A stretch of DNA of 58,515 nucleotides from a virus. Lineage: Duplodnaviria; Caudoviricetes. A model generated the notes under the pieces. That model made no database searches. It was not told the DNA's origin and saw only the letters and a program-made list of their open reading frames with translations. A program made the position numbers and the translations under genes. This document shows, piece by piece, positions 1 through 41,143 of the stretch. Within the stretch, counting starts at the first letter, position 1. Each line of letters opens with the position of its first letter. The stretch is from positions 1 to 58,515 of IMG/VR virus record IMGVR_UViG_3300022208_000278. One strand, given 5' to 3'.

Positions 1-228
1 ATGACAAAGAATGAGGCAATAACAGAACACCTAAAACACTGGGAGAAATTCCCCGTTTTCGTGTGGAAAGAAGGAAACGACCTTGTGACCGAGGTTGACG
101 GAAACATACTGCGTGCAAAGACAGTATTCCAGATGGACACGAAACTAGATGGGATAGCACCAGCCCCAAGGAATTTGTATTTTGTGGACGCGCCAGATTA
201 TGAAACAGAGTGTGCAGAACGGAACTGA
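1..228 (+). CDS. hypothetical protein at distal end of array A
   Basis: 75-aa ORF ending within the first attC-like site. Confidence 0.65.
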   Translation: MTKNEAITEHLKHWEKFPVFVWKEGNDLVTEVDGNILRAKTVFQMDTKLDGIAPAPRNLYFVDAPDYETECAERN

Positions 229-297
229 GCTAACCGGACACGCCGTAGGCGTGTCCGAGTTGAGCGAGTGGTTAGCCGACAAATTTAACAACGGAGA

Positions 298-567
298 ATG
301 AACATGCGTATTTGGAAATGGGTAATTGGTATATCCGACGAATTAACTTTGATGATGCCTATCGGAGCAAAGCTGCTTGACGTTCAAATGCAAGCAGACC
401 AATGCTACATTTGGGCGCTGTGCGATCAGAACGCCGAAAAAGAACCGCGACACTTGGCGATATATGGAACCGGGAACCCGATGCCGGATGATCCTGGTGA
501 GTACGTGGCAACCTTCCAAATGCACGGTGGGGCGTTGGTATTCCATGCGTTCGAGATTGGCGGCTAA
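298..567 (+). CDS. cassette protein (small phage protein, ...IYGTGNPMP...VATFQMHGGALVFHAFE)
   Basis: RBS acGGAGa; stop TAA inside the GGCTAAC box. Confidence 0.8.
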   Translation: MNMRIWKWVIGISDELTLMMPIGAKLLDVQMQADQCYIWALCDQNAEKEPRHLAIYGTGNPMPDDPGEYVATFQMHGGALVFHAFEIGG

Positions 568-654
568 CGCCTGAGATAACCGGAGCGACGCGGCTTTATT
601 GCGGCGCGTCCGGTTGATTGACGGGTTAGGCCCGTCTTAACTACGGAGAACAAA

Positions 655-885
655 ATGGAAACACTTGAAACACTTGATGAAATGATTGATAAGCTAAAAA
701 ATTTACGCGAATCAATTGGGAGAAATTGCAATGTATTTGTGTCTGGGTGGAACGATACCGGAATAGTTCGCCCGACGAACACGGTAGCAATATTTGTTAA
801 AAGGACAGGGCTAAAAGAAGACGGTGAGATAAGCCGCGTTTGGGAAGAATCAGATGATGGTGATATAGCGGTAATCATATCGTGA
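655..885 (+). CDS. cassette hypothetical protein
   Basis: RBS acGGAGa; fills cassette 625-899. Confidence 0.75.
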   Translation: METLETLDEMIDKLKNLRESIGRNCNVFVSGWNDTGIVRPTNTVAIFVKRTGLKEDGEISRVWEESDDGDIAVIIS

Positions 886-959
886 TTGAGGGGCATAACG
901 CAGAAATAACCGGCGGCTGAAAGCCGTCCCGCTGGATTGACGGGTTAGCGAACATAAGG

Positions 960-1121
960 ATGATTGAAATGGAAGACTTAATTGGGCCACCAGAGCAAGG
1001 CGCTTTGGTCGAGATTTACGCAAAAGGAATGCGCGTAAAAATTCGCGTGAACGATTCGGAAGATGCGGAGATTGTGAGGTTGGCATTAGAGATGGCTGAA
1101 CGTCGCAGGTATGGACGCTAA
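960..1121 (+). CDS. cassette hypothetical protein, 53 aa (MIEMEDLIGPPEQGALVEIYAKG...RRRYGR), not in ORF track
   Basis: Manual translation; AAGGA upstream of the second ATG (969); TAA in CGCTAAC box. Confidence 0.65.
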   Translation: MIEMEDLIGPPEQGALVEIYAKGMRVKIRVNDSEDAEIVRLALEMAERRRYGR

Positions 1122-1159
1122 CAATTGAATTAACGCGCCGCCGCTTTTGGCGGTCGCGG

Positions 1160-1348
1160 TTGAATGAGGGGTTCGACATACAGGAAGCGTGGAGAACTGG
1201 CGAGCGGGTGAGTCTCAATCCAGGGCCACCAGACCCGGTGAAGATGGCCGTATTGATGCGGCAGCGAGATATGGGGCGGTGGGTATTTGGCGCTATGGCC
1301 GTTGGTTTTCTGGTCATGGCGATTGCGGCGGTGATTCGTGATGTCTAA
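1160..1348 (+). CDS. cassette small membrane protein (start uncertain)
   Basis: C-terminal hydrophobic helix; TAA in GTCTAAC box. Confidence 0.55.
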   Translation: MNEGFDIQEAWRTGERVSLNPGPPDPVKMAVLMRQRDMGRWVFGAMAVGFLVMAIAAVIRDV

Positions 1349-1431
1349 CGTGGAGTTAACTCGGCTGCGCATCGCGCAGTCCGGTGGAGCGAAGCGGAAC
1401 GAAAGTTGAACGTAAAGTTAGGGGTGAAACT

Positions 1432-1701
1432 ATGGAAATAAGTACACACAAAGCGGCAGAGCTTTTAAAGCTGATGACCGGAGAACTGAGACAAGATGAA
1501 TACGGAGAAACCGCATTCATGCTTGATGATGGACGCGCATTACTACTCACAACATCGGTACATATCGGGGTGCATACGTCATCGGCTCGGGTTGTATACC
1601 ATCACGTTATGGGATATATCGCGGAGGAATTCGAGCCGCTACCAAAAGCCCCTAACGTGGAGGTAAGCCGCAACCAACAGCGGCCACAAAATGACGAATA
1701 A
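1432..1701 (+). CDS. cassette hypothetical protein; C-terminus read into next attC
   Basis: ATG 15 nt after GTTAGGG; ends PNVEVSRNQQRPQNDE, encoded by the attC. Confidence 0.7.
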   Translation: MEISTHKAAELLKLMTGELRQDEYGETAFMLDDGRALLLTTSVHIGVHTSSARVVYHHVMGYIAEEFEPLPKAPNVEVSRNQQRPQNDE

Positions 1702-1990
1702 AACTACAACACAAAGCCCGCTGTTGGTTGTCGGACTTGACCGTAAAGTTAGGGGTGATGCGCAATTTGTTGAGGCCGTGAAAAAATGGAGGCTCGACAC
1801 TGGCGGAACGGAATTGCATCTCGTGCTAAATAACGGGAAGCCGCAGGCGGCATACCCGCGCAAGGTGCAAGCGGAAATATATGCGAGTGGATTTTCAAAA
1901 AACGAAGGCGTGAAAATCATTAGCGGAACTTTCACCCCTAACGTGCAAGTTCAGCGGGACGCCGCTTTTGGCGGCTCCGCTGGAACGTAG
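1691..1990 (+). CDS. cassette hypothetical protein with attC-encoded leader and tail
   Basis: ATG lies in loop of attC 1650-1754; stop lies in attC 1936-1998. Confidence 0.65.
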   Translation: MTNKTTTQSPLLVVGLDRKVRGDAQFVEAVKKWRLDTGGTELHLVLNNGKPQAAYPRKVQAEIYASGFSKNEGVKIISGTFTPNVQVQRDAAFGGSAGT

Positions 1991-2023
1991 GGTTGTGCGT
2001 CAACTTAACAACGGAGAACGAAA

Positions 2024-2263
2024 ATGAAAAAAGAATTTGGAGAAGCGCCGCTTACATGCCCAGAATGTGGCAGCCAAGAAGTTACAGTAAGCCACCTACA
2101 AAGGTTCATGGCTAACACTGGTGATCATTACTGCCACAGTGTAAAGACACAAGATGCGGACTCAGAATCGACATGTCTTGCTTGCCAATGGATTGGAAGG
2201 CGCGACCAGTTAATGACGCACAACGTAGAGCTAACCGGCGCTGCGCGCCACGAAAAGGAGTAA
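2024..2263 (+). CDS. cassette Zn-ribbon protein (CPECGS...CLAC)
   Basis: RBS acGGAGa; two CxxC motifs. Confidence 0.75.
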   Translation: MKKEFGEAPLTCPECGSQEVTVSHLQRFMANTGDHYCHSVKTQDADSESTCLACQWIGRRDQLMTHNVELTGAARHEKE

Positions 2264-2268
2264 GAGAT

Positions 2269-2577
2269 ATGAAGATCGAGAAACCACATGACTCAGCAAC
2301 GCCTACGGGCGCAGCGTCCGCGTTGAGCGCCGGGTTAGCCGTGCGGGTTGATCCTTTATACGTTTCCGTTCGCGGAAGCGAGGGGATCACCTTCAAGGAA
2401 GGCTGGAGCACTGGGAACATGACTGCGCCGGGAGTACAGATCGACACGGTTTGGTACGCAGAGCAGAGCAGAGCATTCGGCGGGTGCATTGACAGGGCCG
2501 AAGCTACGCAAATACGCGACTGGCTGAACTCGTGCATAGCCAAATGGGATCAGGAGAAGGTGAAGGCTAACGTCTGA
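2269..2577 (+). CDS. cassette hypothetical protein with attC-encoded leader
   Basis: AAGGAG-N8-ATG inside attC 2218-2340. Confidence 0.7.
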   Translation: MKIEKPHDSATPTGAASALSAGLAVRVDPLYVSVRGSEGITFKEGWSTGNMTAPGVQIDTVWYAEQSRAFGGCIDRAEATQIRDWLNSCIAKWDQEKVKANV

Positions 2578-2642
2578 CATAAGGGGCTGGCCGTAGGCCA
2601 GTCCCTCTTGGTGGAAAAGTTAGACCACATTGGAGACAGAAG

Positions 2643-2957
2643 ATGATGATAGATATTAGATGCCAGCGAGAACCGTGGAGAGACGGGATAGAGGTTGCGG
2701 TATTTCAGAAGCGAGAATTTGGAATGATGGTTGCCGAACCGTTGACGCTTAGAGAACTGAAGGACGGAGAAAACCTCAACGAGCCAACTATGCGCCTGCG
2801 GAACGAAGAGGCGCAACAATTGATAGATGAACTCTGGCGATGCGGACTGAGGCCCAGTGAAGGAACGGGCAGCGCCGGAAGTTTGGCGGCAACCGAAAAG
2901 CACTTGGCAGACATGCAGAAAATAGCGTTGGGGCTGCTTAAAGTTCATGGGGTCTAA
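2643..2957 (+). CDS. cassette phage hypothetical protein (...AQQLIDELWRCGLRPSEGTGSAGSLAATEKHLADM)
   Basis: GGAG RBS; TAA in GTCTAAC box. Confidence 0.8.
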   Translation: MMIDIRCQREPWRDGIEVAVFQKREFGMMVAEPLTLRELKDGENLNEPTMRLRNEEAQQLIDELWRCGLRPSEGTGSAGSLAATEKHLADMQKIALGLLKVHGV

Positions 2958-3002
2958 CGACAAAATTGAGCAGCCGCCCACTAAAACACTGGAGAAAACA
3001 CG

Positions 3003-3344
3003 ATGAACGATGAGACAAAACTGAATGACGAAAACCCCGCTGATGGGCGGTCTGACTCGAATGGAGGGTTAGGCGAAGTTGATTTTTATAATTATCTTCG
3101 AGAAGAAATAACTGATTTAGATAGCGCCAAAATGTTCATGTGGAAATGGGTGAACGAAATGGATCAGGAACTCCCCAAATTTGGCTCGATAAGCTCAAGA
3201 GCGCTGTGCGCCCACGTTAGCGCGATATTGGAAGGAAAGGAACAAGACGATTCAGGGGGTGATGGATATACTCAATACCTGAATACAAAGTATGGGCCTG
3301 AACTCTACTATTCAGCGTGGGGAGGGCGGCCTAACGTGATATAG
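3003..3344 (+). CDS. cassette hypothetical protein with attC-encoded leader; stop supplied by attI-like site
   Basis: GGAG + ATG inside attC 2952-3074; ends PNVI* in AACGTGATATAG. Confidence 0.7.
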   Translation: MNDETKLNDENPADGRSDSNGGLGEVDFYNYLREEITDLDSAKMFMWKWVNEMDQELPKFGSISSRALCAHVSAILEGKEQDDSGGDGYTQYLNTKYGPELYYSAWGGRPNVI

Positions 3345-3394
3345 ACACCTTTGCAGGTGTATAACACCCTGCGAAGGCAGTTTTACACCTAAAG
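3329..3394 (-). other. attI-like recombination site A
   Basis: - strand reads ...GGTGTAAAAC...GGTGTTATACACCTGCAAAGGTGTCTATATCACG|TTAGGC; near-identical copies at 6141-6206 and 40125-40190. Confidence 0.7.
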
Positions 3395-3406
3395 GAGAAA
3401 AATAAA

Positions 3407-3437
3407 TTGACAAAACATTAATTTGCTTTAACATAAT
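3407..3437 (+). promoter_or_regulatory. sigma70-like promoter upstream of Q-like gene
   Basis: TTGACA 3407-3412; TAACAT (16-nt spacer) or CATAAT. Confidence 0.45.
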
Positions 3438-3455
3438 GACCCACAACGAAGCGGA

Positions 3456-3989
3456 TTGGTTGGATACAATTTAAAAGATGGGGACGAATTGCGAATATCA
3501 ATTAAATCTTATTCACAGGCAGTAAACTCGTCGAATTTAATTGATAATACAATTAAGCAAGATACGGCGATATTGGCCGCTGTAGCTCTATCATCAGAGC
3601 TTGGGTCAATGCTATTCCGGGCTAAATATGCTGGAGACGAGCACAGCGTCATGATGCTCATGGATGCGTGGCGAATAAAAGTCTCTGCGGTGGCAAAAAA
3701 ACGCAGATTTTTGGAAAAGGCAAATGAGGTTGCTGATACGTCCTTGCGATATTGGCTGCAAGGCGTATGCCGAGTATGTGATGGTCGAACTGCACCGAAA
3801 ATTGATAACACACCAATGCTGGCCGATCTTGTGTGCCCAGCGTGCGGTGGGAGCGGGCAAGCCAGATTAAAGTGCGATGAGAGCATAAAAGATCATGTTC
3901 GTGATGCAATCGAAACGCTAAACCAAATGGAACGCGAGGCAGGCGGCGCAGCGATCAGGAAATTGTCGGATGATGTGCGTGCGGTATAA
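3456..3989 (+). CDS. antitermination protein Q-like (Zn finger CRVCDG...CPACGGSG); start may be TTG 3489
   Basis: Size and paired CxxCxG motifs typical of lambdoid Q antiterminators. Confidence 0.6.
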   Translation: MVGYNLKDGDELRISIKSYSQAVNSSNLIDNTIKQDTAILAAVALSSELGSMLFRAKYAGDEHSVMMLMDAWRIKVSAVAKKRRFLEKANEVADTSLRYWLQGVCRVCDGRTAPKIDNTPMLADLVCPACGGSGQARLKCDESIKDHVRDAIETLNQMEREAGGAAIRKLSDDVRAV

Positions 3990-3998
3990 ATTTACAAA

Positions 3999-4085
3999 GG
4001 AAGATGCCGCTAGGTTGGCTGGCAAGCGGTTTTGAAAACCGTGGTGTCCGAAAGGGTAAGGGTTCGACTCCTTCATCTTCCGCCA
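3999..4085 (+). tRNA. tRNA-Ser (anticodon TGA)
   Basis: Acceptor GGAAGAT/ATCTTCC, discriminator G + CCA, anticodon arm GCGGT-TTTGAAA-ACCGT, long variable arm, GGTTCGACTCC T-arm. Confidence 0.9.
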
Positions 4086-4126
4086 TTATTACCATTATTA
4101 AACGCCACAGGCAGCTTGACCGTAAA

Positions 4127-4265
4127 GTTAGGGGTGAAAGTGGTGGGGATTATTAAAGCGCATCCAAGCGCAAGTGTTCCGGGAGGCATACCGGGTAGTG
4201 CAGGCCGTTCGACACGGCGGCACGGCATGTTGGATATAGTAGTCCTCACCACTTTCGCCACTAAC
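4127..4265. ncRNA. ORF-less cassette, candidate structured RNA
   Basis: 23-bp terminal inverted complement (3 mismatches); internal GCCG-TTCGACA-CGGC T-loop-like hairpin; no RBS/ATG-led ORF filling the cassette. Confidence 0.35.
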
Positions 4266-4326
4266 GTAGAGCTAACCGGCAGGCCGCTTGGATGCCGTGT
4301 TAGGCACGACCAAACAGGAGAACGAA

Positions 4327-4635
4327 ATGAAATTGCTGGACATGGTTTCCGCTCTATCAAAAGCAGGTGTTGCTACAACAGTGCGCGGTGTAGGGGAAAC
4401 ATTGATAGCCGAGTTTGAGGATGGGTTTTATAAATCAGACGGAATGGCGCACCTACGCGAAGAAAACGGGCGACTGTATCTAAACGCCAGATATGGCGAG
4501 AAGAAAGAGGTTTTAGGGATTGATGACGTTATCAAATGCTCTAAAGAATGGCACGAATTCAGCCACGATAGATTCGATGGATGGGAAACACCGCCAGCAC
4601 ATTGGGCCGCGCTGTATGAGACGTTGAGTGCCTAA
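4327..4635 (+). CDS. cassette hypothetical protein
   Basis: AGGAG RBS; TAA in GCCTAAC box. Confidence 0.8.
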   Translation: MKLLDMVSALSKAGVATTVRGVGETLIAEFEDGFYKSDGMAHLREENGRLYLNARYGEKKEVLGIDDVIKCSKEWHEFSHDRFDGWETPPAHWAALYETLSA

Positions 4636-4658
4636 CGTGGAATTAAGCGGGCGCGAAA

Positions 4659-4868
4659 ATGACCTCTGATAAAACCAGCCACGCTGAACGCGCTCCGCTT
4701 GAATGTAGGGTTATGCCTCTGCCACTTGGAACGCAAACCCAATGGGGAAAAATTGAAATGGTCGGCATCACTGGAGGCGAACGGTACTACTGGATGCTCG
4801 ACAAACATAAATGCGTGTCCATGATTCCTGCCTTCATGGTAGAACAGGGGCATAACGACAAAGCTTAG
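4659..4868 (+). CDS. cassette hypothetical protein with attC-encoded leader
   Basis: ATG within attC 4630-4716. Confidence 0.65.
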   Translation: MTSDKTSHAERAPLECRVMPLPLGTQTQWGKIEMVGITGGERYYWMLDKHKCVSMIPAFMVEQGHNDKA

Positions 4869-4938
4869 GGGCGACGCCGTAGGCGGCGTCCCACTAGAGC
4901 GGCGGGTTGTGCGCCGCCGTTCAACGGAGATAAACACG

Positions 4939-5226
4939 ATGAAGCGATACCGAACACCGAAGGCGAAACCCGGCGAACTGCTGGTGAAGTACGGGCAGGA
5001 ACATGGAGACCGTGACCTGTACTTTTGCTACGGGGCTGGCGGGGCAACAAGACGAGATTCAAATGTCGTGATGATGGCTTTCAATAGCGAACTGAAACTT
5101 GGGAATGGGAATTCACTCGTTAAAGAACTAGAGGCTCGTGGATACGACATCACAACGCTGAAATTCACGGTGCAATTGAAGGCGCACAACGTGAAGCTAA
5201 GAGACAGGCCGACCGAAAAACTTTAA
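4939..5226 (+). CDS. cassette phage hypothetical protein (...SLVKELEARGYDITTLKFTV)
   Basis: acGGAGa RBS; reads into next attC. Confidence 0.75.
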   Translation: MKRYRTPKAKPGELLVKYGQEHGDRDLYFCYGAGGATRRDSNVVMMAFNSELKLGNGNSLVKELEARGYDITTLKFTVQLKAHNVKLRDRPTEKL

Positions 5227-5240
5227 AGGAGAAATGAACC

Positions 5241-5498
5241 ATGAACACACGCAACTTTGGAAAGAAATCACTTATCGGCCTGTCCCTCTTGAGCGTAGGG
5301 TTAGTGGGTTGCGAACTTGCATCACCGTGGCAAGGTGCAGGTGCTCTTTACATTTACGATCATGGTGTTTCGCGTTGTGTAAATGTTAAAGAGGTAGCTT
5401 TCAATGCGTCTCGATCTACAGATTATATTGATCTTGATGGTATCCAATATTTGGCGCGTGAACCTGTGGCATATTACGCTGGTGAGAAATGCAAATGA
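5241..5498 (+). CDS. cassette lipoprotein; signal peptide encoded by attC
   Basis: MNTRNFGKK-SLIGLSLLSVG-LVGC lipobox; residues 1-22 lie in attC 5184-5306. Confidence 0.65.
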   Translation: MNTRNFGKKSLIGLSLLSVGLVGCELASPWQGAGALYIYDHGVSRCVNVKEVAFNASRSTDYIDLDGIQYLAREPVAYYAGEKCK

Positions 5499-5553
5499 AT
5501 ACCCCTAACGGGGAGCTAAGGGGCTGCGCGCATCACGAAACTTTGAAGGAGCG

Positions 5554-5901
5554 ATGAGCATGGAATCAGCGAACGAAACTGGAAAGAACCCCGCTGGCGC
5601 GCAGTCCGGTGGAGCCGAAGGCGGAACGAACTTGAGCGGATGGTTAGCCGCCGAGAAGCAGCAGGAAGCGGAATGGGACAATTTTTGGCGCGAGCGCGAA
5701 CTAGAAGAACGAGAGCTTTTTGAGCAGAGCTACCGCCGCCACAAACTGAACCGGCATCATGGCGGAACAGGAGAATATGAGCATCGCTACGTCGAGCATT
5801 GTTGGCATGGCTGGATGGATAGGGCATTCGTGATCTACACAGAGGCGGCTAACGTGCAAGTTCAGCGGGACGCCGCTTTTGGCGGCTCCGCTGGAACGTA
5901 G
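5554..5901 (+). CDS. cassette hypothetical protein with attC leader and tail
   Basis: AAGGAG + ATG inside attC 5503-5649; tail identical to that of 1691-1990. Confidence 0.7.
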   Translation: MSMESANETGKNPAGAQSGGAEGGTNLSGWLAAEKQQEAEWDNFWRERELEERELFEQSYRRHKLNRHHGGTGEYEHRYVEHCWHGWMDRAFVIYTEAANVQVQRDAAFGGSAGT

Positions 5902-5934
5902 GGTTGTGCGTCAATCAAACTATGGAGAATAAAA

Positions 5935-6156
5935 ATGTGCGTAATAGTCATGGTCGGAGATATTGAGTGTAGTACAAAAGCAGAACTGAGAAATGCTATC
6001 GGAATTGAACCGGAGCGCAGAAAGAAAGATTACAAAACATTTGAGGACGGAGATTGTCTTTGTCCATGCGATCTTGAGAAAACAGCAAAGCTCGCAAATA
6101 TGACTTTGAGCGGCGATTCTTGGGATGTGCAGATTTTGACGCACAACGTGATATAG
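5935..6156 (+). CDS. cassette hypothetical protein (DCLCPCD)
   Basis: GGAG RBS; ends HNVI* in attI-like site. Confidence 0.75.
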   Translation: MCVIVMVGDIECSTKAELRNAIGIEPERRKKDYKTFEDGDCLCPCDLEKTAKLANMTLSGDSWDVQILTHNVI

Positions 6157-6206
6157 GCACATTTGCAGGTGTATAACACCCAACGAAGGCAGTTTTACAC
6201 CTAAAG
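6141..6206 (-). other. attI-like recombination site B
   Basis: AACGTGATATAGGCACATTTGCAGGTGTATAACACCC...TTTTACACCTAAAG, near-identical to sites A and C. Confidence 0.7.
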
Positions 6207-6321
6207 ACAATAGGATTGAATTTTGAATCTGAAAAAAAACAGTAGCTAGTCAATATCTCAAAGTGGAATAGTTCGGGTGTTAAGGTTCATGCCAAGCTGA
6301 ATATCAAGATGATGAAGAGTC

Positions 6322-6579
6322 TCATTTCCTAGGGAGCATCCTACGCTCTTTCTCGTTGATTATTCTTGATTCTGTGATTTTTATTCTGATACAAACAAGC
6401 CAGTAAATAATTAGCACAAATGATAATAACGCACCCATAGCCGAGGCTAGCTTCCCAATGTCATTGGGTATCCATTCAAGCACCGTGCTGAGTCCAGATG
6501 CCGCCGTCGCGCTACCCAATGCTATCGCCGTCTTTGGGCTTGTAGCCATTCCTGCTAGTACGCTTTTTAAGTCTGTCAT
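6322..6579 (-). CDS. small membrane protein (holin-like)
   Basis: Two hydrophobic segments, basic C-terminus, end of lysis cluster. Confidence 0.55.
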   Translation of the reverse strand: MTDLKSVLAGMATSPKTAIALGSATAASGLSTVLEWIPNDIGKLASAMGALLSFVLIIYWLVCIRIKITESRIINEKERRMLPRK

Positions 6580-8977: not shown

Positions 8978-11299
8978 CTATAATTTATTAAATAGCGCGG
9001 ATGCCATCAGTGATGGGGGCACCTCAGCCTGCGAATACTCTTGGATGTAATGCCAACTAGTTTGATTAGACTGAGAGTATGGGACTAGATATATTCTGTT
9101 CTGCGTTGGAGAGTAAACACCACCACGATACCCGTTCGTAACTACAGTTGCTCCGTGAGTGTAAGCTACGACTGTGCCAGTTGCGCAATCAATGTAGTGC
9201 CAACTCGTTTGATTAGACTGTGCTAATGGGACTAGATATATTCTGTTCTGTGTTGGAGAGTAAACACCACCAATATACCCGTTCGTAACTACAGTTGCTC
9301 CGTGGGTATAAGCTACGACTGTGCCAGTTGCGCAATCAATGTAGTGCCAACTCGTTTGATTAGACTGTGCTAATGGGACTAGATATATTCTGTTCTGAAT
9401 CGGGGAATAAACACCACCATAATACCCGGTCGCAACTACAGTTGCTCCGTGAGTGTAAGCTACGACTGTGCCAGTTGCGCAATCAATGTAGTGCCAACTC
9501 GTTTGATTAGACTGAGAGTATGGGACTAGATATATTCTGTTCTGCGTTGGAGAGTAAACACCACCATAATACCCGGACGCAATTACAGTTGCTCCGTGGG
9601 TATAAGCTACGACTGTGCCAGTTGCGCAATCAATGTAGTGCCAACTCGTTTGATTAGACTGAGAGTATGGGACTAGATATATTCTGTTCTGTGTTGGAGA
9701 GTAAACACCACCAGCATACCCGGTCGCAACTACAGTTGCTCCGTGAGTGTAAGCTACGACTGTGCCAGTTGCGCAATCAATGTAGTGCCAACTCGTCTGG
9801 TTAGACTGAAAGTATGGGACTAGATATATTCTGTTCTGTGTCGGGGAATAAACACCACCAGCATACCCGGACGTAATTACAGTTGCTCCGTGGGTATAAG
9901 CTACGACTGTGCCAGTTGTGCAATCAATGTAGTGCCAACTCGTCTGGTTAGACTGTGCTAATGGGACTAGATATATTCTGTTCTGTGTTGGAGAGTAAAC
10001 ACCACCAATATACCCGTTCGCAACTACAGTTGCTCCGTTCAAATACGAGCCTACGCCGAATCCTATATTTATATTTTTCGAGTGTATCCGTGATAGGTAT
10101 GAGACAAGGTTGGGTATACTTATCGTATCCATCCTGACGGACGGGAATGGCGCGGTTAGTATGTTTGTTGCGCTGGTGAGCGTTTTATTGGTTAGCGCCT
10201 CGGCTCCCGTGGGAGTTGTTAGGTCAGTCCCCAGCGTGAGTTCGGCAGCCATACCACCCGCATCAAACCCTGCGACCTTAAGCGCTGTTCCGGTATGCCC
10301 AGAGCCAGACCATGCCAGATCGGTCAAGTTGGGGTGGCTTGTCGGTGCCAAGGCGGTAGGTGCGGAGCTTCCGATAACAGGGCGCAAATCGGAGATGGTC
10401 GAGGGCGAAGTAGCGCCATTCAAGAATGTGATTTTTGCAATCACCATCCCGTGTTCCATGTATTCCTCTGGACGATTTGTCGGGGTGGCTTCAGCCAGCG
10501 CTTCGGCTTCCGTTGCGTATTGAGCGCGTCCGTATTGAACTACGACATCCCCCAAGTAACCCTGTATCACGTAATGATTGCTGTACCACCCAACGGTCGT
10601 TGCTGTGAGCACGCCAGCATTGTCGTATTGGGTATTGTCCCATTGAGTTTGAGCGGCTACATAGGTGTATGTGCCTGTCCCATAAATAGCTGTGAACGTG
10701 CCACCAGCGTTGGAATCGAACAGGCTTATATGTTCCTGATCCATGCTTCTGGACACTTCAATCGTCCCAGCGGTTATGGCTATTTTCCTCGATGGTGCTG
10801 ATGGGTCATAAGTCACCAGCCCCGCAGAAACTCTATCCCCGATTGTTCTCTGCGCCCATCCCTGCGCACGATTTACAAAGTCTCCGATTGGCCGTGCATC
10901 CGGGTGAATCTTGAGCACCCCTCCCCGGTTGTGAACCTCTCCCAAATAGATCAGGTCGTACCCGTTCGAGGTGTCTGTCGGGTTGAATGCGATGTTCGGT
11001 GCGCCAGAATTCCAACTCCCTATCAAGTACCTTGTGGTGTCAGTAGGAATCGCCACGCCAGTCAATCCGGCGACAGTATTCTCGTAGTAAATCGAGGATG
11101 TTGCCGTAGATCCTGAGCGTATGATGAATTCTCCAACAGCGACGTTTACCGTCGCGCCGCCAGCATCGGTAATCCCGAAGCCCTCGATCCAGCCTGACGA
11201 GCTTAAATCTTTCCACAGGCTGCGCAGGGTCGCGGTGGTTCCGGTTGAGTGGACTAGCAGCGTGCCATCAGACCGACCTCCATCTCTCCATGCTGACAT
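8978..11299 (-). CDS. tail fibre / receptor-binding protein with 7x49-aa repeat domain
   Basis: Gly/Thr-rich beta structure, LTNKTL fibre motif, C-terminal tandem repeats. Confidence 0.7.
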   Translation of the reverse strand: MSAWRDGGRSDGTLLVHSTGTTATLRSLWKDLSSSGWIEGFGITDAGGATVNVAVGEFIIRSGSTATSSIYYENTVAGLTGVAIPTDTTRYLIGSWNSGAPNIAFNPTDTSNGYDLIYLGEVHNRGGVLKIHPDARPIGDFVNRAQGWAQRTIGDRVSAGLVTYDPSAPSRKIAITAGTIEVSRSMDQEHISLFDSNAGGTFTAIYGTGTYTYVAAQTQWDNTQYDNAGVLTATTVGWYSNHYVIQGYLGDVVVQYGRAQYATEAEALAEATPTNRPEEYMEHGMVIAKITFLNGATSPSTISDLRPVIGSSAPTALAPTSHPNLTDLAWSGSGHTGTALKVAGFDAGGMAAELTLGTDLTTPTGAEALTNKTLTSATNILTAPFPSVRMDTISIPNLVSYLSRIHSKNINIGFGVGSYLNGATVVANGYIGGVYSPTQNRIYLVPLAQSNQTSWHYIDCTTGTVVAYTHGATVITSGYAGGVYSPTQNRIYLVPYFQSNQTSWHYIDCATGTVVAYTHGATVVATGYAGGVYSPTQNRIYLVPYSQSNQTSWHYIDCATGTVVAYTHGATVIASGYYGGVYSPTQNRIYLVPYSQSNQTSWHYIDCATGTVVAYTHGATVVATGYYGGVYSPIQNRIYLVPLAQSNQTSWHYIDCATGTVVAYTHGATVVTNGYIGGVYSPTQNRIYLVPLAQSNQTSWHYIDCATGTVVAYTHGATVVTNGYRGGVYSPTQNRIYLVPYSQSNQTSWHYIQEYSQAEVPPSLMASALFNKL
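9044..10036 (-). repeat. 7 tandem 147-bp coding repeats
   Basis: GATV...GGVYSPTQNRIYLVP..QSNQTSWHYIDC.TGTVVAYTH, period 147 bp. Confidence 0.95.
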
Positions 11300-11936: not shown

Positions 11937-14900
11937 TCACGGGTTTTTTGAGTATCTTGCCATTGCTTTTTCGTATCTGGTCGCCAGTTGGTTTGATAGC
12001 GCAATTTGCCGATCCTCAGCCAGTTTTATCTTTGCTTTACTGCCTTCTGCACGTGCATCTTCTTCTGCTTTGCGTAGGTTCTTCATGCGCTTTTGCCAGA
12101 AGATAATGCTAGTCCCTCCTAGAACCCTACTTTGTTTTACGCCATCTTCACCGGATTTTTTCTTAACCTCGCTCAATTGGTCATAGAACCTGCCGCGATA
12201 CTCCTCAACGTCCTTTGTCGAGATAATCTTTCTGACAAATGGGGTGTGTTCAACATCGGGAAATTCTCCTGACACGGCCTCTTTCCCTGTGGCGTATAGG
12301 TTTGATGCGAACGTTCCAGTTCCGCCAGTCAAGAATCCAGCCATCATCTTCAGTGTCTCTGGTGATACATCAGCCCAAGCCAACACTGCGCTATTCGCAG
12401 CCTTATCGTAGAGTGTTCCGCGAGTGCTTCGATACATTGTTTCACGGTCAGGCTTCCCATCATCATCCGAGAAGTGCGGCACAAGTTTACCCCCAAACGA
12501 ATTCGCGTTGACCGATGACATCATCAGCGGCTTTAGCATAGTCGGGGATACGTTCACAGCAAACTTTTCTTGCGATACCTCGCCTTTATCTACGGGAGAA
12601 CCTATGGGTGTAAAGTGCTCCATGAATTGCCCTAGGGTATTTACAGCAGCCTTCATCGGGCTTATGCGGCCTTTCATCATATTTCCAGCCGTATATCCCG
12701 CTCCGAAGAAGAATCCAAGACCATAAGCCAGAATCATCTTCACTGTGTATTCGCCAAAATGCAGGTTCAGGTTATGCTCTTTGTCGTACTCACTGGTCAA
12801 TTCGTCGTCGTCGTCGCCGGTCATCATCGCCGCAAATACACCTAATGCGAATAATCCTCCGATGATAGCTTTTACCTGAGTTTTATGTTTCGTTCCGGTA
12901 GCAGCACGGAACAGGTTTTGAGTTCCTTGCACGTTCGCATTCCAGAACAGATAAGCAGCATTCCACGCTTTCGACTGTTCGCCTTTGCGATTGAAGTTGA
13001 CGGTGACATTCTTGGCTATACGAGAGGCTTCCGCCAGCACCTTCGGCGTTACTTTATCCACCCCACCGTTAGCGTCAATAAACGAGCGGAAAGCTGCCAT
13101 ACGATAAGCATTCTCTGCCGCATGGTTTAGATTCTCGATCAGCATCATCAGGCGGCTATCCAGCATTCTGTACAAGACTACCTTTCCGGCTCCAGACACG
13201 GCCTTGCCAGAACGATCTAAGATCGTGCCCTTGTGAGACAAACCCTGTTTCCATGCTCGAACGACTCCACCTCCACCGTGCCGAGCAAGCATTGAGTCAA
13301 GTTTAAGTTGCTGCGTCTCTATATCGTCCAGCATGGCAAAGGCGGTCAATGCTCCACTGTTCCTTGCGAGGTCGTAATACTTCTGCCATACGCCCATAGA
13401 CTTATCGCGGGATTGTGCAAACATCGCCTTGGCTGCGCTGGGTACATGGCTCATTGCCTTTGCAGCATACTTCGCCCCACCTTCCCCAGTTAGTACCGCA
13501 AATGCAGTTTGTGCATCACGGAACAGGTTGGTGATGATGAACTCTGGATTTTTCTGCGTATACATCTGGCGCAGGAACATATTCAGATTGGCAGATGCTT
13601 CAAGTATTCCGCCAAGTTGCGATGCGTTCAAGTTGTTATAAGCCGCCGCCATGATTGGGTCGTGGAGTTGAATGCGGAACTCTTTACCGTTCTTGATGTA
13701 CCTAACTTCCTTGGTGTTATCGAAGCCAATATCTCGCATTATGATGGTAGGCTCGCCGCCAACTTTGTTGATCTTGATGTCGCCTTCTTTGTCGTTAACA
13801 TTTCGCTTGGACTCGACAAATCGGCGCGCATCATTCAGGTTGTCAAACCGTTCAACAATAGACCCGTAATATTCGACTTCGTATCTCTGCGGAGTCTTAC
13901 CCTTTACCGGCGTTTTTTCTGGCTCTTCAATCGTCCACAATGTAGAGTCTGGGTTATCTTCCACAAGGTTACGCAGCGTCTCGCCTACGTTCGCTTTTTC
14001 TTTCAAGAATATGGCGGCGTGGTAGTCCCTGAATATATTCTCGACCACCTGACCCGCACGGCTTACCCGACCAAGAGCCTGACGCGATGCGCGCTTACTG
14101 GTTGAATACCCTCCACCGATTCCATTACCTACCTTATTCCCTGAGTCATCAATAACCTCAAAACCTTTGTATGGGACATAAAAACCCATAGCGTCACGCG
14201 CTTGCTGGGCTTGGTCGGCAGTCATTACGTTACCCTCAACAAGCAAGTCCAGCTTCGATTCGGTTACTTTTTGGATGTCTCTTGCCAGCGAATCAAACTT
14301 TTCAAAGTCAGGGCGCTTGCGGTAATCATCAATTATCTCTTGCGCTTCAAGATTGGTTATGCCCGATCCGTTGTTCGGCATGTCGTCGCGCAATGTCTGG
14401 ATATAGGCATTACGATCTTTCGCGCCCAAGGCCATCAAGTATGTGCCGATTTCCTCTGTTGTAGTTTTGAGTTCGGCTACGCGCTTCATAAACGGCTCGA
14501 CAACTTTATCCGTGAACTTTTCTTGCTGCAAAGCAACTCGGTCTGTCATGCGCTCCATAGCCTGATAGACGTTGCTTTGCTCGTCCACGATACCCCCCTG
14601 TTCTTGGATGGCATCCTGAATGACTTTTATGCGATTGAGATTGTCCTGCTGTTTGCGCTGGAGTTCCTGCAAAGATGTTTCTTGCGGGATGTTGAAGCGT
14701 TTTGGCGACTCATTATTTACAGGTGGCGCGGACTTTGAGAGCATCACACCGCCAGACTTGGAATACATTACGCCTTTTAATCCGGGTGGTAACTCGCCAT
14801 CGAAAAGCGATAGTGTCTCATCGCTTCCTCTTCTGGAATCTGATTTATCTTTAAGTGATTGTGCGAGTCCCGCTCGTACAACGCTGGCAATACCGAAAGG

Positions 14901-17900
14901 ACTCCTTTTAGCCATGTCCGGCTCAATACCGAGTCGCTTTGCTCTTGCGAATCCGCGATCCATTGCCTGATTAACGAGCTTGGTTCCCATGTCGGATTTG
15001 ATACTAACTCTGCCGTTCTCCGAGCGTAGGCGCAGTCCGTCCTGATCGGGAAGGTCGATCTCCAATTCTCCGGTAGTAAAGTTGTAGTGGACATTATTAA
15101 CCTCTGGTACAAATAATGAGATATTATCTTGCGCCGACTTAATCAAATTGTCAATGTTTTGCGCATCATTATCACCCCACTTTACAGGGGAATACTCTTC
15201 TAAAAAATAATCATTATGACCTAATTTTCCTTTGTAAAGATTAGGATACTTCTGCTCATTAGATGGCTCCATGAAGTCAGTCCTACCTCCATGACGGATA
15301 GCCGCCGATAACATTAATTCAGTTCTGCGTATCATTGCGATGTCAGTAACCCCGTATGGGTCTCCGATTAACCTTACCCCTTTGTTCTTTGCGGCATAGT
15401 CAAGTACGCCAGTATAAAGTGCAGCACCACCCGATGAGCCAGATTTAAAGTTAGATACGTTTAGCCATACGCGGCCATCATCAGCTTCGTATATAAATGC
15501 TGGATTGTCATCAAATCCTGAAACAACTTCCCAAGCCTTAACTACGCCATCTTTTTTAGCCATTTCTTCAGGGACTTCTATTTCTTTGATTTTACTTTTT
15601 GCAGAAACAGATTTTCCGTCCTCGTCTTCGCCATTCATGGCTGACAGTACATTCCCTTCAATACTTGTTTCGTTGTTCTTTTTGAATTTAAACAGATTGT
15701 CATGTACGGATAATTTCTTCCAAACTTGCTGGATAAGTGATGATGTATATTCTTGCTTACTAAATGACTGAGTATCACCCTCTACATTAACATCGCCGCG
15801 AGCTGCTTGAGCCATCCCTGCCTTGGCAAGTGCGATAATATCGTCAACGCTTAATTTGACCGCTACGCCACGCTTGAACAGTGCAGCCCTTACCTTGGCT
15901 ACCCAATTACGCACAAACTCGCTTACGCGCTTTCCTAGCTTGTCTGTGAGGTGTGCAAATAGAGTGTTGTCTATGGCGCTGAATCCGTCTTGGCGACCAA
16001 GTAATAAAGCCTGTTCAACGATGTAGGATGCAGATTCCATTTCCATTTCATCACCTACCACCCCAGCGCTTTCCATCCGCGCATAAACAGATTGCAGGAA
16101 CTCGCGTAGTTTCTTCGGGACGAGCTTGCTATCCCTCAAGGCAAGCAAGTCCATTGCCTGCTTGCGCATTTCCTTGGTATCGGTAGCATGTACTGTTTCA
16201 TGCAATGCAACAGGGGCGGCAGTCTCTTTGGTCAAATTATTGGCGACCATGAATGTCAGGCCGCTACGTGGATCGTAGAGAGCTTGGACTTTCCCGGATT
16301 TGCTGTAGCGGATGTCTGGATTATTTGGGCTAAATGTGCCACGATTTCCTATGGCTGATTTGATCTGGCTTGGCTCGAAGGCAACCCATACTTTTTGAGG
16401 ATTACGGTTTTCATCAAGCTCTGAAATAATCGCCCCATCATATCCCATCTTTTTTAATATTTCGACAAGATGATCTCCTCCATATTCTTCATCAAACAAC
16501 TCCCATAACTCATGCTGCCCATTAGTGAGCATTCTTGAGTTATACCCGTTTGCATCAAGGGTATTAAGGAAAGCATCGCGCAGGTTTGTTAAATCTGCCG
16601 GGTCTGATATTTGAAGAAATACATCCATCTTCTTGCCGCCAAACTCTGACGCAAAAGAGGCATTTTCAGCAAAGAATAATCCATATCTCTTTGCATCGTA
16701 ACTACCGAATATCGTAGCATTCTTTGTCGGTCTGCCCACCTCAAAAGAATTGAACTCGTTTTTCGTATTGTGATAAACAACCAGCGGATTACCATCAGCA
16801 TCCACCACCTTGCTATCGCCAAACCATTTCTTAAACGCTGGCGTGTCGGTCTGATTACCGGCGACCGATTGCAACACATCCTCGCCCAACTCCACCCCTG
16901 TCTTTTCCTTGAACAGTTCCGGCAGGCTTTCAATATCCTTGGCAATGACAATTCCACCCTTCTTTCCTTCGTCGCCGCGCTTCAAGAGGATGTCGGCGTA
17001 CTTTGAGGTGTTGGGATTGTCGCGCAAAGATTGGGCGATTGTCGCTGGGGTTTCGGAGGTTGTGGAGTTGGTGGTGCGGCTAAACATTAAGTCCGCATCT
17101 GTGGATAGTTGTTTGATTTTTGCCTTGCGATCCACCTCATCGCCATGCTTGTACTTAATGACGTTTTGGATTCCGCGCTTTTCGAGCGCATCCAATGCTT
17201 TCTGGCTAATATCGTCAGGCACAACAGCGCCCTTGAACTCGCTTAAATCCACGGCGCGGAGAATCTTTGCCTCGAAATATTCAGTTGGCAGGCTTCGTAA
17301 CTTGTCAAGAAACTCAGCGGCATCTTTCAGTTTTTCTTGTGGCGCATCTTCAAATCCGTTTTCACGGAATGCGCGAGGCAGTCCCATCGTGGCAGCGTCG
17401 TAGAGAGTAGACGACATGGTATCTCCAAATCCGATCTTGTTTCCTATCGGGTGGTATGCACCAAACTCTTCCGCGAGCGCAAAAAATTCTTTATCTATCT
17501 CGTCCTTCACCTTCTCAAACGCGGCTTTGTCCATCAGCCTATTTTTGGCATCCTGAATTTGCTTAATGCTTTTGAATTGTGGCGCGAACTTAGAGCGGAT
17601 CGTTCCTACGCCATAATTAAAGCTCTCTCCACCACGCAATTCTTTCTTGAGTAGCTTGATTACATTATCCAGTGTATGCGGGATGTACTTACGGTTTCCA
17701 CTTTTTGTATAGCCTTGGAATATGCGCTCATTCGCGCCAATATCATTGAAAAATTCTTTTGCGTACCCCTCCATTTCATTGCGCAAACCTGCATCGGATA
17801 TTTGTTTTTCAAGCGCATATCTTGTTTTTGTTTTATCTATGTCACCTTCGGATGCGCGATTCATAATGTGATGGTTAATCTCTTGCGCAATGCTATTCAC

Positions 17901-40083: not shown

Positions 40084-40112
40084 AGTCTAACCAGTTTGTT
40101 TTTGGTTGTCAA
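40084..40112 (-). promoter_or_regulatory. sigma70 promoter facing packaging genes (pR'-like)
   Basis: TTGACA-17nt-TAGACT on - strand. Confidence 0.6.
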
Positions 40113-40124
40113 TTTATTTTTCTC

Positions 40125-40190
40125 CTTTAGGTGTAAAACTGCCTTCGCAGGGTGTTATACGCCTGCGAAGGTGCCTATATCATGTTGGGC
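40125..40190 (+). other. attI-like recombination site C
   Basis: CTTTAGGTGTAAAACTGCCTTCGCAGGGTGTTATACGCCTGCGAAGGTGCCTATATCATG|TTGGGC. Confidence 0.7.
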
Positions 40191-40191
40191 G

Positions 40192-40371
40192 TCATTGCAG
40201 CCACGCGAAAGACCAATTCCCGATTTCAATGTGTTTCTTGAAACCGTTCCTCTCGCTAAACGTGAGGCGGCTTTTACGCAGGTCTTTCCAGCCAAAGCCT
40301 CGCCCGAACAACCTGAACCACCCGCCATCACGGGTAAAGTATCCGTGTAAAAATTTTAATTTAATCACCAT
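40192..40371 (-). CDS. cassette hypothetical protein
   Basis: acGGAGa RBS; fills first cassette. Confidence 0.7.
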   Translation of the reverse strand: MVIKLKFLHGYFTRDGGWFRLFGRGFGWKDLRKSRLTFSERNGFKKHIEIGNWSFAWLQ

Positions 40372-40459
40372 TCCAGTTCTCCGTTGAAAGTTGACGCACA
40401 ACCCTACGTTCGAGCGGACGCTGGTAAAGCGTCGCGCCCCTCAACTACTTGTTGTGCGC

Positions 40460-40642: not shown

Positions 40643-40710
40643 ATATACCTCCGTTGAAAATTGACGTACAACCCTACGTTCTAGCGGGACTGCGCAGAAG
40701 CGCGCAGCCC

Positions 40711-41055: not shown

Positions 41056-41143
41056 TTTTCTCTCCGGTTAAAAGAGGGGCAGAACCCCTCGCTCATGCGG
41101 GACGCTGCAAAAGCGCAGCGCCCCATAGCTCAATCGTTGGGCA

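Follow-up and report, generated by a model that had tools for sequence, protein, structure and literature searches.

A back-to-front integron-type attC site that probably serves as the reusable head of a predicted lipoprotein gene in a phage

A survey of 10,705 phage genomes recovered 17 clusters of attC sites lacking an integrase, known as CALINs, with at least two sites each, and the integrase IntI1 was reported to recombine five of the six phage attC sites tested with attI1 (Qi et al. 2023, PMC9892861). In the text of Qi et al., the terms 'signal peptide' and 'lipoprotein' are absent and no site that holds a start codon is described. For the integron attachment site attI1, ORF-11 is reported to supply a ribosome site and a start codon that aid or begin translation of the adjacent cassette (PMC8876359). 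Our literature search found no paper on an attC that doubles as the head of a lipoprotein gene. Small lipoproteins by which phages block superinfection include Llp of T5 and Cor of phi80 and N15. Here we describe a locus in a viral record of 58,515 nt (IMG/VR IMGVR_UViG_3300022208_000278, hereafter the window), where positions 5184-5306 are probably a back-to-front attC of the integron type that heads the gene of a small predicted lipoprotein, the head being a putative reusable start-and-export part.

A covariance model (R1) was built from 16 short hairpins of the window only. None of the 16 seed hairpins departs from AAC, GTT and a bulged G, and compensating changes are found in six of their 11 pairs. 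An extra T lies six paired bases deeper than the bulged G, as in the aadA1 attC of R100, and the spacers are 5-6 nt. AAC and GTT, which belong to the inverse core sites RYYYAAC and GTTRRRY expected at the two ends of an attC, are also invariant in nine of nine signal-peptide heads, as we call the attC sites related to 5184-5306. At E ≤ 1, R1 returned 40 matches, of which 39 lie in the window. The remaining match is in 50 kb of R100, at its one true attC, that of aadA1 (L004, 13475-13534, + strand; 42.5 bits, E 8e-8), and the matched strand is opposite to aadA1, i.e. the bottom strand. All 39 window sites are on the sense strand of small-gene arrays, with none in the structural region (~6.3-40 kb), and each is followed by an ORF on the same strand; the usual layout, with the attC downstream of its cargo, is not seen. 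The window attC sites are back to front, the recombinogenic bottom strand being the sense strand of the phage. In 13 of the 39 hairpins an ATG in the loop opens the next ORF, and about one-third of the sites contain the ribosome site, the start codon and the first 15-30 codons of the gene. The window gave no match to PF00589 or TIGR02249, and a tyrosine recombinase is absent from the window and from three related phage records. An earlier note, made from the letters of the window, had called 5184-5306 and 43483-43605 attC sites, and their cores, paired arms, extrahelical bases and likeness to the model all bear this out. A loose signature (AAC, bulged G, GTT) gave 60 matches against 27.4 expected in shuffles and was too noisy, as was an energy-based scan for hairpins, and the covariance model was used instead. 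REP-like or terminator elements were rejected, as the hairpins lack T-runs and share their cores with true attC sites.

The elements of 5184-5306 (copy A) are collected in the table together with those of a second copy at 43483-43605 (copy B). The attC, the signal peptide and the completed lipobox described for copy A in the earlier note are all in place. Folding z-scores on the sense strands are weak, -2.17 for copy A and -1.43 for copy B, and the R1 scores of both copies listed in the table are modest. Folding energy by itself is weak evidence, and the hairpin is backed by compensatory changes instead. Of the two ATGs in the loop, ATG2 gives the signal-peptide frame and is kept in eight of nine aligned heads; ATG1 is not conserved. 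Along with the Shine-Dalgarno sequence and the ATG, the loop of copy A encodes the basic n-region MNTRNFGKK, and the 3' arm, extrahelical bases included, reads SLIGLSLLSVG, the hydrophobic core. The lipobox L-V-G-C (TTA GTG GGT TGC, 5301-5312) takes its Leu from the TTA of the 3' core, with the canonical G|TT position on a codon boundary, and the DNA past this core encodes x-G-C and the mature protein. The proposed origin of a lipoprotein signal peptide in an attC is supported in this form: n- and h-regions, ribosome site and start lie in the attC, and the Cys comes from the sequence past the 3' core. On the right, the next attC also has an ATG in its loop, opening a 115-aa ORF (5554-5901). 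No promoter-like site was found in 4800-6400, and no RNA data set was listed as containing 4900-5950.

Table. Coordinates of the two copies of the signal-peptide attC, their parts and other features of the window
Feature	Position	Strand	Basis or remark
Copy A, signal-peptide attC	5184-5306	+	sequence; model R1 25.9 bits, E 7.5e-4; stem covariation
Copy A, 5' core GCACAAC	5184-5190	+	read from sequence
Copy A, spacer after 5' core	5191-5195	+	
Copy A, 5' arm	5196-5211	+	
Central 81 nt, identical in copies A and B	5205-5285	+	
Copy A, loop	5212-5275	+	holds AAGGAG, ATG1 and ATG2
In-loop translation start	5226-5243	+	AAGGAG 5226-5231; ATG1 5234-5236; ATG2 5241-5243
Copy A, 3' arm	5276-5294	+	includes extra T, C/T and G
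Copy A, spacer GTAGG before 3' core	5295-5299	+	
Copy A, 3' core GTTAGTG	5300-5306	+	followed by GGT TGC, 5307-5312
ORF A, 85-aa predicted lipoprotein	5241-5498	+	starts at ATG2; MNTRNFGKKSLIGLSLLSVGLVGC, then mature part
Next attC	5503-5649	+	5' core a few bases past the ORF A stop codon
Third attC, related 3' arm	41285-41409	-	same-frame NESLIGLSSLNDGLGTG
ORF B, 71 aa, starts MNLKQF, non-lipoprotein	43256-43471	-	
26-codon ORF MNTRNFGKKSLIGLSLLTAVLEDGLE, signal-peptide frame of copy B	43468-43548	-	from ATG2 (43548)
Copy B, signal-peptide attC	43483-43605	-	model R1 21.2 bits, E 0.01

The signal peptide of ORF A comprises residues 1-23, leaving a mature part of 62 aa. With R4, K8 and K9, a maximal 11-residue hydropathy of 2.34 and LVGC ending in Cys24, ORF A passes a PROSITE-like lipobox rule (basic n-region, hydrophobic core, L-x-[GAS]-C, Cys at ~15-35). 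An additional Cys, at -3 or -4, makes three related proteins (L021/P0046, L026/P0045 and L040) fail this rule. The five members of the ORF A family are all 85 aa long and carry the signal peptide, and L21, G23 and Cys24 are invariant; a start downstream of the Cys, which would have counted against the signal peptide, is seen in none of them. In L003, the homologue of ORF A is preceded by the same hairpin. The AlphaFold2 model of ORF A has pLDDT above 90 for residues 30-85. The analogy with superinfection-exclusion lipoproteins drawn in the earlier note found no support in sequence or fold: ORF A matched no family in Pfam or PHROGs, and Foldseek searches of PDB and BFVD returned nothing at E ≤ 0.001; leads from an Atlas search were all below 0.9. 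The best PDB rows in Foldseek are Tudor or SH3-like barrels at E 0.2.

Eight different mature lipoprotein parts, of which seven or more are unrelated, are found behind the signal-peptide head, and the likeness ends at each core box. Besides that of ORF A, these are the mature parts of L021, L022, L025, L026, L040, P0043 and P0044, among which an all-against-all BLASTP gave a single weak cross-match (L040 with P0044). Across the eight heads with unrelated cargo (28 pairs), mean pairwise identity rises from 26% ahead of the 5' core to 72-78% within the head and drops to 27% past GTTA. The stem co-varies, with 93.8% of main-helix cells pairing and the observed score reached by one of 500 shuffles. 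The head is not complete everywhere: L040 retains only the 3' half of the hairpin, the 5' arm of L022 does not pair, and the lipobox is absent from two of 10 heads found at the DNA level (L091 and L103) and from copy B. The head is portable, with eight mature parts joined to it and likeness lost past GTTA, so that the same DNA would serve both for gene shuffling and as an export tag that can be used again. The L040 protein matches phrog_902, and that of L021 has one weak match, to phrog_10627 (E 2.3e-4), both families of unknown function. An exact 23-mer of the loop had no match in viral_contigs, nor did 5100-5560 match any deposited phage in a distant BLAST. One of six viral matches to a 17-mer (L023) was dismissed as chance, and a degenerate arm pattern gave only two further matches, both chance, inside spanin-like ORFs.

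The signal-peptide head also has bacterial copies, one in a genome of Gallionella (L091, 539-661) and one in a genome of the Sterolibacteriaceae (L103/L106), each in an array adjoining an integrase gene at 487 bits on TIGR02249; the cut-off for integron integrases is 265, which none of 14 control genomes passed. The strand recognised by R1 is the sense strand of intI in three of the three integrons examined, R100 counted. In both bacterial integrons the head is an ordinary attC with its cargo on the opposite strand, and the signal-peptide frame leads to no gene body. The two betaproteobacterial integrons show the usual arrangement of attC and cargo, unlike the window. The 17-mer had 78 loci in genome_contigs; the extended arm is found in only three, and the remaining 75 are fortuitous matches or lie at the ends of an element repeated in several genomes.

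Two alternatives were considered for the site and its genes. Signal peptides and upstream regions are often the best-conserved parts of lipoprotein families, and the genes behind the head could be diverged members of one such family, with a conserved N-terminus and with hairpin and boxes incidental. Four of the five ORF A family members keep the head, as ordinary paralogy would predict, yet we consider it highly improbable: identity falls to background within a few bases of both cores, the mature parts are without similarity to one another, the non-coding upstream arm co-varies with the coding arm, the head stands in two integrons without a lipoprotein body behind it, and P0005 joins a family A body to a different signal peptide. 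The other alternative is that the hairpins act mainly as RNA, setting the rate of translation, processing or stability for each small gene, and that their likeness to attC is a relic or convergence with no integrase acting in the phage. All 39 sites are on the sense strand and hence transcribed as hairpins, 13 of them have the ribosome site and ATG in the loop, no integrase was found in the phage records, and attC structure has been reported to affect the translation of cassettes (PMC8876359). Against this, the same family adjoins intI on the strand that does not code for the bacterial cargo, where an RNA role is unlikely, the invariant AAC/GTT cores are features of DNA recombination, as are the extra G and T, spaced as in the aadA1 attC, and an Rfam search of the whole window matched no family. 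A mainly RNA-level role is unlikely; the RNA role and the recombination role are compatible and not mutually exclusive.

Copy B is 89% identical to copy A over 121 nt (E 1.6e-41), a repeat far beyond chance. The 15 differences between the two all fall within the outer 21 nt of each side (eight and seven), and the identical centre is the signature of recent copy correction within the genome. The outer arms of copy B carry compensating changes relative to copy A and match the arms of L003, L021, L025 and L026. The recurrence of the loop, its tandem ATGs and a TGA/ATG overlap had been noted before and are all present. ATG1 of copy B (43555, - strand) is in frame with a 99-aa ORF starting MNHEHTQLW, and the TGA of the MNTRNFGKKSLIGLSLLTAVLEDGLE ORF overlaps the MNLKQF ATG of ORF B at 43471. 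ORF B has its own GAGGA 9-10 nt before its ATG, inside and just past the 3' core. In copy B the same head stands ahead of a gene for a non-lipoprotein, with a ribosome site and ATG of its own, and all that the head yields is a 26-codon ORF ending on this ATG. ORF B has no Pfam or PHROG match, and of 128 pattern matches to it in viral_contigs none was confirmed as a relative. At the third attC, NESLIGLSSLNDGLGTG falls in the polar N-terminus of a 68-aa ORF (41144-41350) and is not a signal peptide.

The earlier note went on to propose that one site offers two frames, which would make the tandem ATGs an adaptor for translating an incoming cassette in either frame, one of them membrane-targeted. 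Both ATGs are present in copies A and B, 7 nt apart, their frames are the only two that pass the GTTAG core without a stop, and in copy B the ATG1 frame is that of ORF B. This proposal did not survive the comparison of homologues and is very doubtful: the MNHEHTQLW extension occurs in none of 30 aligned ORF B homologues, 20 of which start exactly at MNLKQF, and in L005-L007, where other hairpins precede it, ORF B still has a GAGGA and ATG of its own. The tally of frames across heads likewise goes against it. ATG1 is replaced by CTG or CCG in three of the six heads with 7-nt spacing (L021, L026 and L003), three heads with 6-nt spacing (L091, L103 and L022) have the upstream ATG in the signal-peptide frame, and the ATG1 frame, which differs from that of the signal peptide, closes after 51 codons in copy A and after eight in L025. 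The tandem ATGs result from a difference of 1 nt in length between starts that once shared a frame, and are no two-frame device. Copy B could instead be a working upstream ORF, whose 26-codon translation opens the 3' arm and feeds ribosomes to the ORF B ATG by translational coupling, or whose peptide acts in the membrane. The ATGA overlap would suit this, as would the ribosome site and ATG, intact and identical to those of copy A, a short ORF that by eye runs in L005 from the upstream hairpin to 5 nt before the ORF B start, and the similar aid that ORF-11 of attI1 is reported to give to downstream cassette translation (PMC8876359). However, ORF B comes with a GAGGA of its own, an in-loop ATG is lacking ahead of the same gene in L006, and the overlap may be chance, since any ATGAAC start gives TGA in the +1 frame; we regard an upstream-ORF role as possible, though on the unlikely side.

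To return to the attC reading, the orientation of the sites bears on how heads and bodies are joined. Since the sites are back to front, the 3' core box is not the canonical integrase crossover, and head and body should form one canonical cassette. The earlier idea of the 3' core box as a cassette junction therefore stands for the Cys, which the following sequence supplies, and falls for a canonical integrase crossover at this box. Three array-end elements in the window become alike exactly at a lone 5' core, in agreement with canonical bottom-strand crossover at the 5' core. Such a crossover leaves the change of partner at the 3' core unexplained, so that re-pairing there would need top-strand recombination, the process of cassette formation or homologous exchange between attC copies. 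The identical 81-nt core of copies A and B shows that the last of these takes place here. ORF B is the only cargo family with several loci (four), and neither its upstream nor its downstream hairpin is conserved above background; linkage between cargo and flanking hairpins could be scored in only seven homologous pairs, six of them from one family, which are too few to set the polarity of exchange. For the gene product, we infer that the loop would keep the ribosome site and ATG unpaired on the early read-through transcript of the phage, and that the ORF A product would be exported by Sec, lipidated at Cys24 and cleaved by signal peptidase II. With an accessible start and this processing, the head would act as a start-and-export part for any body that follows in the right frame.

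Taken further, the phage attC sites may be substrates of integrases, shared with host chromosomal integrons (Nitrosomonadales, e.g. Gallionella, Sterolibacteriaceae), and at the same time interchangeable heads from which any body joined at the 3' core receives a start codon and an N-terminal peptide, in some cases an entire lipoprotein export signal. We put this forward tentatively, at somewhat less than an even chance. If true, phage cassettes are built back to front compared with bacterial ones, a host integrase reshuffles the early genes of the phage, and phages carry genes tagged with attC from one integron to another; where head meets body, at the cargo-facing core, a trace of how cassettes are made would then be visible. 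The shared attC family ties the accessory-gene arrays of the phage to host chromosomal integrons and suggests that integron integrases may act on phage genomes. A recombination site that, by prediction, is also coding sequence for export and lipid anchoring, common to unrelated proteins, would amount to a natural plug-in signal peptide. The fixed head-body junction at a non-canonical core bears on how new cassettes acquire their attC. In practice, such genes will be given wrong starts or orientations by gene callers and integron finders that do not expect a bottom-strand attC at the 5' end.

Compared with known systems, the window sites share with integron attC sites (aadA1 of R100; betaproteobacterial integrons) the inverse cores ending in AAC and starting with GTT, the 5-6-nt spacers, the paired arms, one strand of which has an extra G and T spaced as in aadA1, and a variable loop, and with integron cassettes the arrangement in arrays of short single-gene units. 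In contrast to integrons, the phage genes are on the bottom strand at 39 of 39 sites, the attC stands before the gene and not after it, and the phage has neither an integrase nor a recognisable attI. The window resembles the described phage CALINs in having attC arrays without an integrase, but with at least 39 sites in one 58.5-kb record it differs from those surveyed (PMC9892861). ORF A resembles Llp and Cor in the 60-80-aa class of its mature size, its lipobox and its place among early or accessory phage genes. Another parallel to the head is ORF-11 of attI1 and fused cassettes, where, as reported, a recombination site also gives a ribosome site and a start codon to the adjacent cassette; there, the start is in attI, on the usual coding strand, and provides coupling or a short fusion with no targeting signal (PMC8876359), whereas the phage head is an attC read on its bottom strand.

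The two signal-peptide attC hairpins of the window, copies A and B, matched the earlier description base for base (coordinates are listed in the table). Read from ATG2, the tandem start in the loop that opens the signal-peptide frame, ORF A is a predicted lipoprotein of 85 aa that reads MNTRNFGKKSLIGLSLLSVGLVGC, followed by 61 further residues. Copy B is 89% identical to copy A over 121 nt (E 1.6e-41); all 15 differences fall within the outer 21 nt of each side, and the central 81 nt (5205-5285) are identical. In copy B, ATG1 shares its frame with a 99-aa ORF, and ATG2 opens 26 codons whose closing TGA overlaps the ATG of MNLKQF, the start of the 71-aa ORF B.

Coordinates of the attC hairpins, array ends and other features of the window
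Feature	Position	Strand	Details
Copy A	5184-5306	+	5' core GCACAAC, 5-nt spacer, 16-nt arm, 64-nt loop
Copy A loop	5226-5231; 5234; 5241	+	AAGGAG; ATG1; ATG2
Copy A 3' side	5300-5306 (3' core)	+	19-nt arm, spacer GTAGG, 3' core GTTAGTG, then GGT TGC
ORF A	5241-5498	+	predicted lipoprotein
Copy B	43483-43605	-
ORF B	43256-43471	-	starts MNLKQF
Array-end elements	3333-3413; 6137-6206; 40106-40194	+; +; -	90-94% alike
Large terminase	37697-39004	-
DnaB-type helicase	48538-49902	-
773-aa ORF	8978-11299	-	six tandem 147-nt repeats, 9045-10079
3221-aa ORF	11937-21602	-	adjoins 773-aa ORF
attC within 187-aa ORF	51323-51386		ORF 51062-51625 (-)
First rightward gene	53469-53669	+	cro- or antirepressor-like
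Long hairpin	53690-53800	+	near-perfect, arms ~22 nt around 53705-53795
First, degenerate attC	53800-53848
Long-loop sites	42385-42507; 51995-52098		cruder scan only

The relatives of ORF A in a large protein collection comprise four other proteins of 62-78% identity, all 85 aa long. Cys24, G23 and L21 are invariant in the five sequences, and every member has the signal peptide and none starts after the Cys, in keeping with the lipoprotein reading of the earlier note. The n-region of ORF A is basic and is followed by a hydrophobic core, and the protein fits a PROSITE-like lipobox rule. An AlphaFold2 model built on the five-sequence alignment folds residues 30-85 into a five-strand beta domain (pLDDT above 90) and leaves the signal peptide disordered. 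ORF A has no Pfam or PHROG family match, a fold search of PDB and BFVD returned nothing at E<=0.001, and the Atlas search gave only leads, to small viral proteins. Superinfection exclusion is a guess from the gene class.

The same head, i.e. the hairpin with its signal peptide, is found in front of many bodies, the protein parts encoded after the 3' core. The same hairpin as in copy A stands before the ORF A homologue of L003, a contig from a related phage. Using a 17-mer, we found the head on different mature parts in four other viral contigs (L021, L022, L025 and L026); a genome contig (L040) carries only the 3' half of the hairpin, on yet another body. A search limited to the first 40 residues added the proteins P0043 and P0044 and relatives of L021 and L026. 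All-against-all BLASTP placed the 14 mature parts in eight groups, and the sole cross-group match was weak (L040 vs P0044, 32% over 41 aa; E 0.004 for a database of 14 sequences), which leaves at least seven body groups unrelated. The body supplies the Cys 2-5 codons past the 3' core (LVGC, LGGC, LCAGC, LCAC, LAGC, LCVSGC, LCGC and FGITGC). Conversely, P0005 joins a family A body to a different signal peptide, and the L026/P0045 family and family A each include heads of both arm variants. Across eight heads with unrelated cargo (28 pairs, L003 excluded), the heads themselves average 72% pairwise identity over their first 25 nt and 78% over the final 60 nt to GTTA, against 26% for the 40 nt that precede the 5' core and 27% for the 36 nt beyond GTTA. 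The stem shows compensating changes at three pairs, 93.8% of main-helix cells pair, and only 1 of 500 shuffles reached its covariation score. The G/TT position of the 3' core is a codon boundary, so that the head ends in ...G and the lipobox Leu is encoded by the TTA or TTG that follows. Judged from sequence, the attC head, back to front, appears to double as a reusable start-and-export part for lipoproteins.

The earlier note further held that one site offers two frames, a claim that we reject, as the 30 aligned relatives of ORF B lack the MNHEHTQLW extension and ATG1 is poorly kept. The ORF B family gave 37 matches, 30 of which were aligned: 20 start exactly at MNLKQF, the other 10 have unrelated extensions of 2-27 residues, and nothing similar to the 28-residue MNHEHTQLW extension occurs among the 30. 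The ORF B gene also lies behind three other attC hairpins in three metagenome loci, whose likeness to the window begins at GTTAGAGGA, which includes the gene's own GAGGA, and stops at the next hairpin's 5' core. ATG2 is retained in 8 of 9 aligned heads. Six heads have the 7-nt spacing, and three of them carry CTG or CCG in place of ATG1, whose frame closes after 51 codons in copy A and 8 in L025. The other three heads have a 6-nt spacing, which puts their upstream ATG into the signal-peptide frame. Because ATG1 is poorly kept and the 6-nt heads are in frame, the out-of-frame pair of the window seems to have arisen by a 1-nt length change and does not look like a device. Copy B is best read as a head in front of a gene that can do without it; its 26-codon ORF might help ORF B translation by coupling.

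The window, a 58,515-bp IMG/VR record of provirus class with an estimated completeness of 77%, is a tailed phage, and besides the large terminase and the helicase it encodes a small terminase, a major head protein, an O-like initiator, a DNA methyltransferase, NinG/Rap and a RecE-like exonuclease. Small genes run rightward at 1-6200 and from 53469 to the window end, and leftward at 40100-53100; the structural genes lie on the minus strand between these blocks. The adjoining 3221-aa and 773-aa ORFs, the latter with tandem repeats, are likely virion or tail proteins. In L003 a homologue of the first rightward gene directly precedes the lipoprotein. The long hairpin that separates the first rightward gene of the window from the first attC may act as a terminator or as a regulatory RNA. 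The 187-aa ORF with an attC in its middle is probably two genes, of which the second begins near MNMSETNNGG, or else a single gene that reads through the attC.

Folding energy by itself is insufficient to establish attC identity. We aligned 16 short window hairpins on the sense strand and built a covariance model from them; the AAC, the GTT and a bulged G of the 3' arm are invariant, and 6 of 11 consensus pairs keep pairing via changes on both sides. Searching the window and 50 kb of plasmid R100 at E<=1 gave 40 matches, 39 of them in the window, all on the sense strand of the small-gene blocks (+ 214-5909, + 54062-55930 and - 40396-52326), which are early and accessory gene blocks; the structural region gave none. 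The single R100 match (13475-13534, +; 42.5 bits, E 8e-8) is the attC downstream of aadA1. Since aadA1 is on the R100 minus strand, the model follows the bottom strand of this attC. Its extra bases lie in the 5' arm when read along the aadA1 coding strand, and therefore appear as an extra T and an extra G in the bottom-strand 3' arm; they are six bases apart, and the phage sense strand is arranged alike. Copies A and B score modestly (25.9 and 21.2 bits), and as the model missed the two long-loop sites, 39 is a lower bound. In 13 of the 39 hairpins a loop ATG opens an ORF of at least 20 codons beyond the hairpin, most of them reading the 3' core as xxG/TTR; gene heads in this phage fall into several classes, of which the signal-peptide head is one. 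At the DNA level, the window matches five other phage records, which bear their own arrays, mostly in hairpins alone (50-125 nt, 78-94% identity). No tyrosine recombinase was found in the window or in three related phage records, and the arrays are, in integron terms, clusters of attC sites without integrase.

We also located the head in bacterial integrons. The 17-mer of its 3' arm occurs at 78 places in one-genome-per-species contigs, about the chance expectation, and the extended arm motif at only 3 of these. About half of the 78 matches (L027-L104) are the conserved end of a repeated element found in Rhodopila, Paracidovorax and other genomes; GAATTT comes next, and these matches frequently sit at the edge of a contig. 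This element is unrelated to the attC head. Two of the three extended-motif places are full hairpins in Betaproteobacteria (Nitrosomonadales), in a Gallionella and a Sterolibacteriaceae record, within arrays adjoining a gene that scores 487 bits on the NCBIfam integron-integrase model (cut-off 265, passed by 0 of 14 control genomes). The Gallionella contig has six model matches (one cut by the contig end), all on the plus strand upstream of intI (+), and its cargo ORFs are on the minus strand with an attC after each; the Sterolibacteriaceae contig runs intI (-), one cargo ORF (+) and the head, with the model's strand on minus. Thus, the model's strand is the intI sense strand in all three integrons, R100 included. 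As the attC bottom strand is the intI sense strand in accepted integron geometry, the phage attC sites are back to front relative to their own genes. In L091 (Gallionella, 1-3140) and L106 (Sterolibacteriaceae, 1489-3150), one attC each is the phage-type head, with ribosome site, ATG and hydrophobic frame intact on the strand antisense to cargo, which hints at recent attC traffic between phage arrays and host integrons.

Read from R100, the canonical integrase cut is on the bottom strand, within the core at its 5' end, and the phage counterpart of this crossover core lies after the upstream gene's stop codon. The canonical cassette is therefore a hairpin plus the gene after it, head and body together. 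The three array-end elements agree with the 5' core as the canonical junction: they become alike exactly at a lone 5' (AAC) core, form a short hairpin and run on into a terminator-like hairpin, CCCTGCGAAGGCAG then TTTT, with a TTGACA promoter in two of the three. On the bottom-strand reading they occupy the attI place, and may be where the arrays are inserted. Heads nevertheless swap bodies at the 3' core, and conservation of the hairpins on either side of ORF B family genes does not exceed background (0.37-0.69; background mean 0.55, 95th percentile 0.72; seven pairs, six from one family).

Three routes of exchange are possible. Heads might be exchanged by rare top-strand recombination, for which the available text of Qi et al. 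(PMC9892861) gives lower but non-zero frequencies, or by a process giving new cassettes a lineage-typical attC, cassette genesis being called an open matter in the part of PMC8352920 available. Homologous exchange between attC copies could also act, and it is demonstrably active in the window phage, because copies A and B are identical over the central 81 nt but differ at 15 of the 42 arm positions around it. This identity marks a recent copy correction, and the same phage encodes the RecE-like exonuclease.

Clusters of attC sites without integrase, with at least two sites each, are known in phages from the available text of Qi et al. 2023 (PMC9892861), in which the words signal peptide and lipoprotein are absent. 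Integrase-driven insertion outside att sites, the subject of a preprint (10.1101/2022.09.11.507474), may be relevant to array entry into phage genomes. A full-text literature search found no paper on attC sites that encode gene starts or signal peptides; among known cases, ORF-11 of attI1 (PMC8876359) comes closest.
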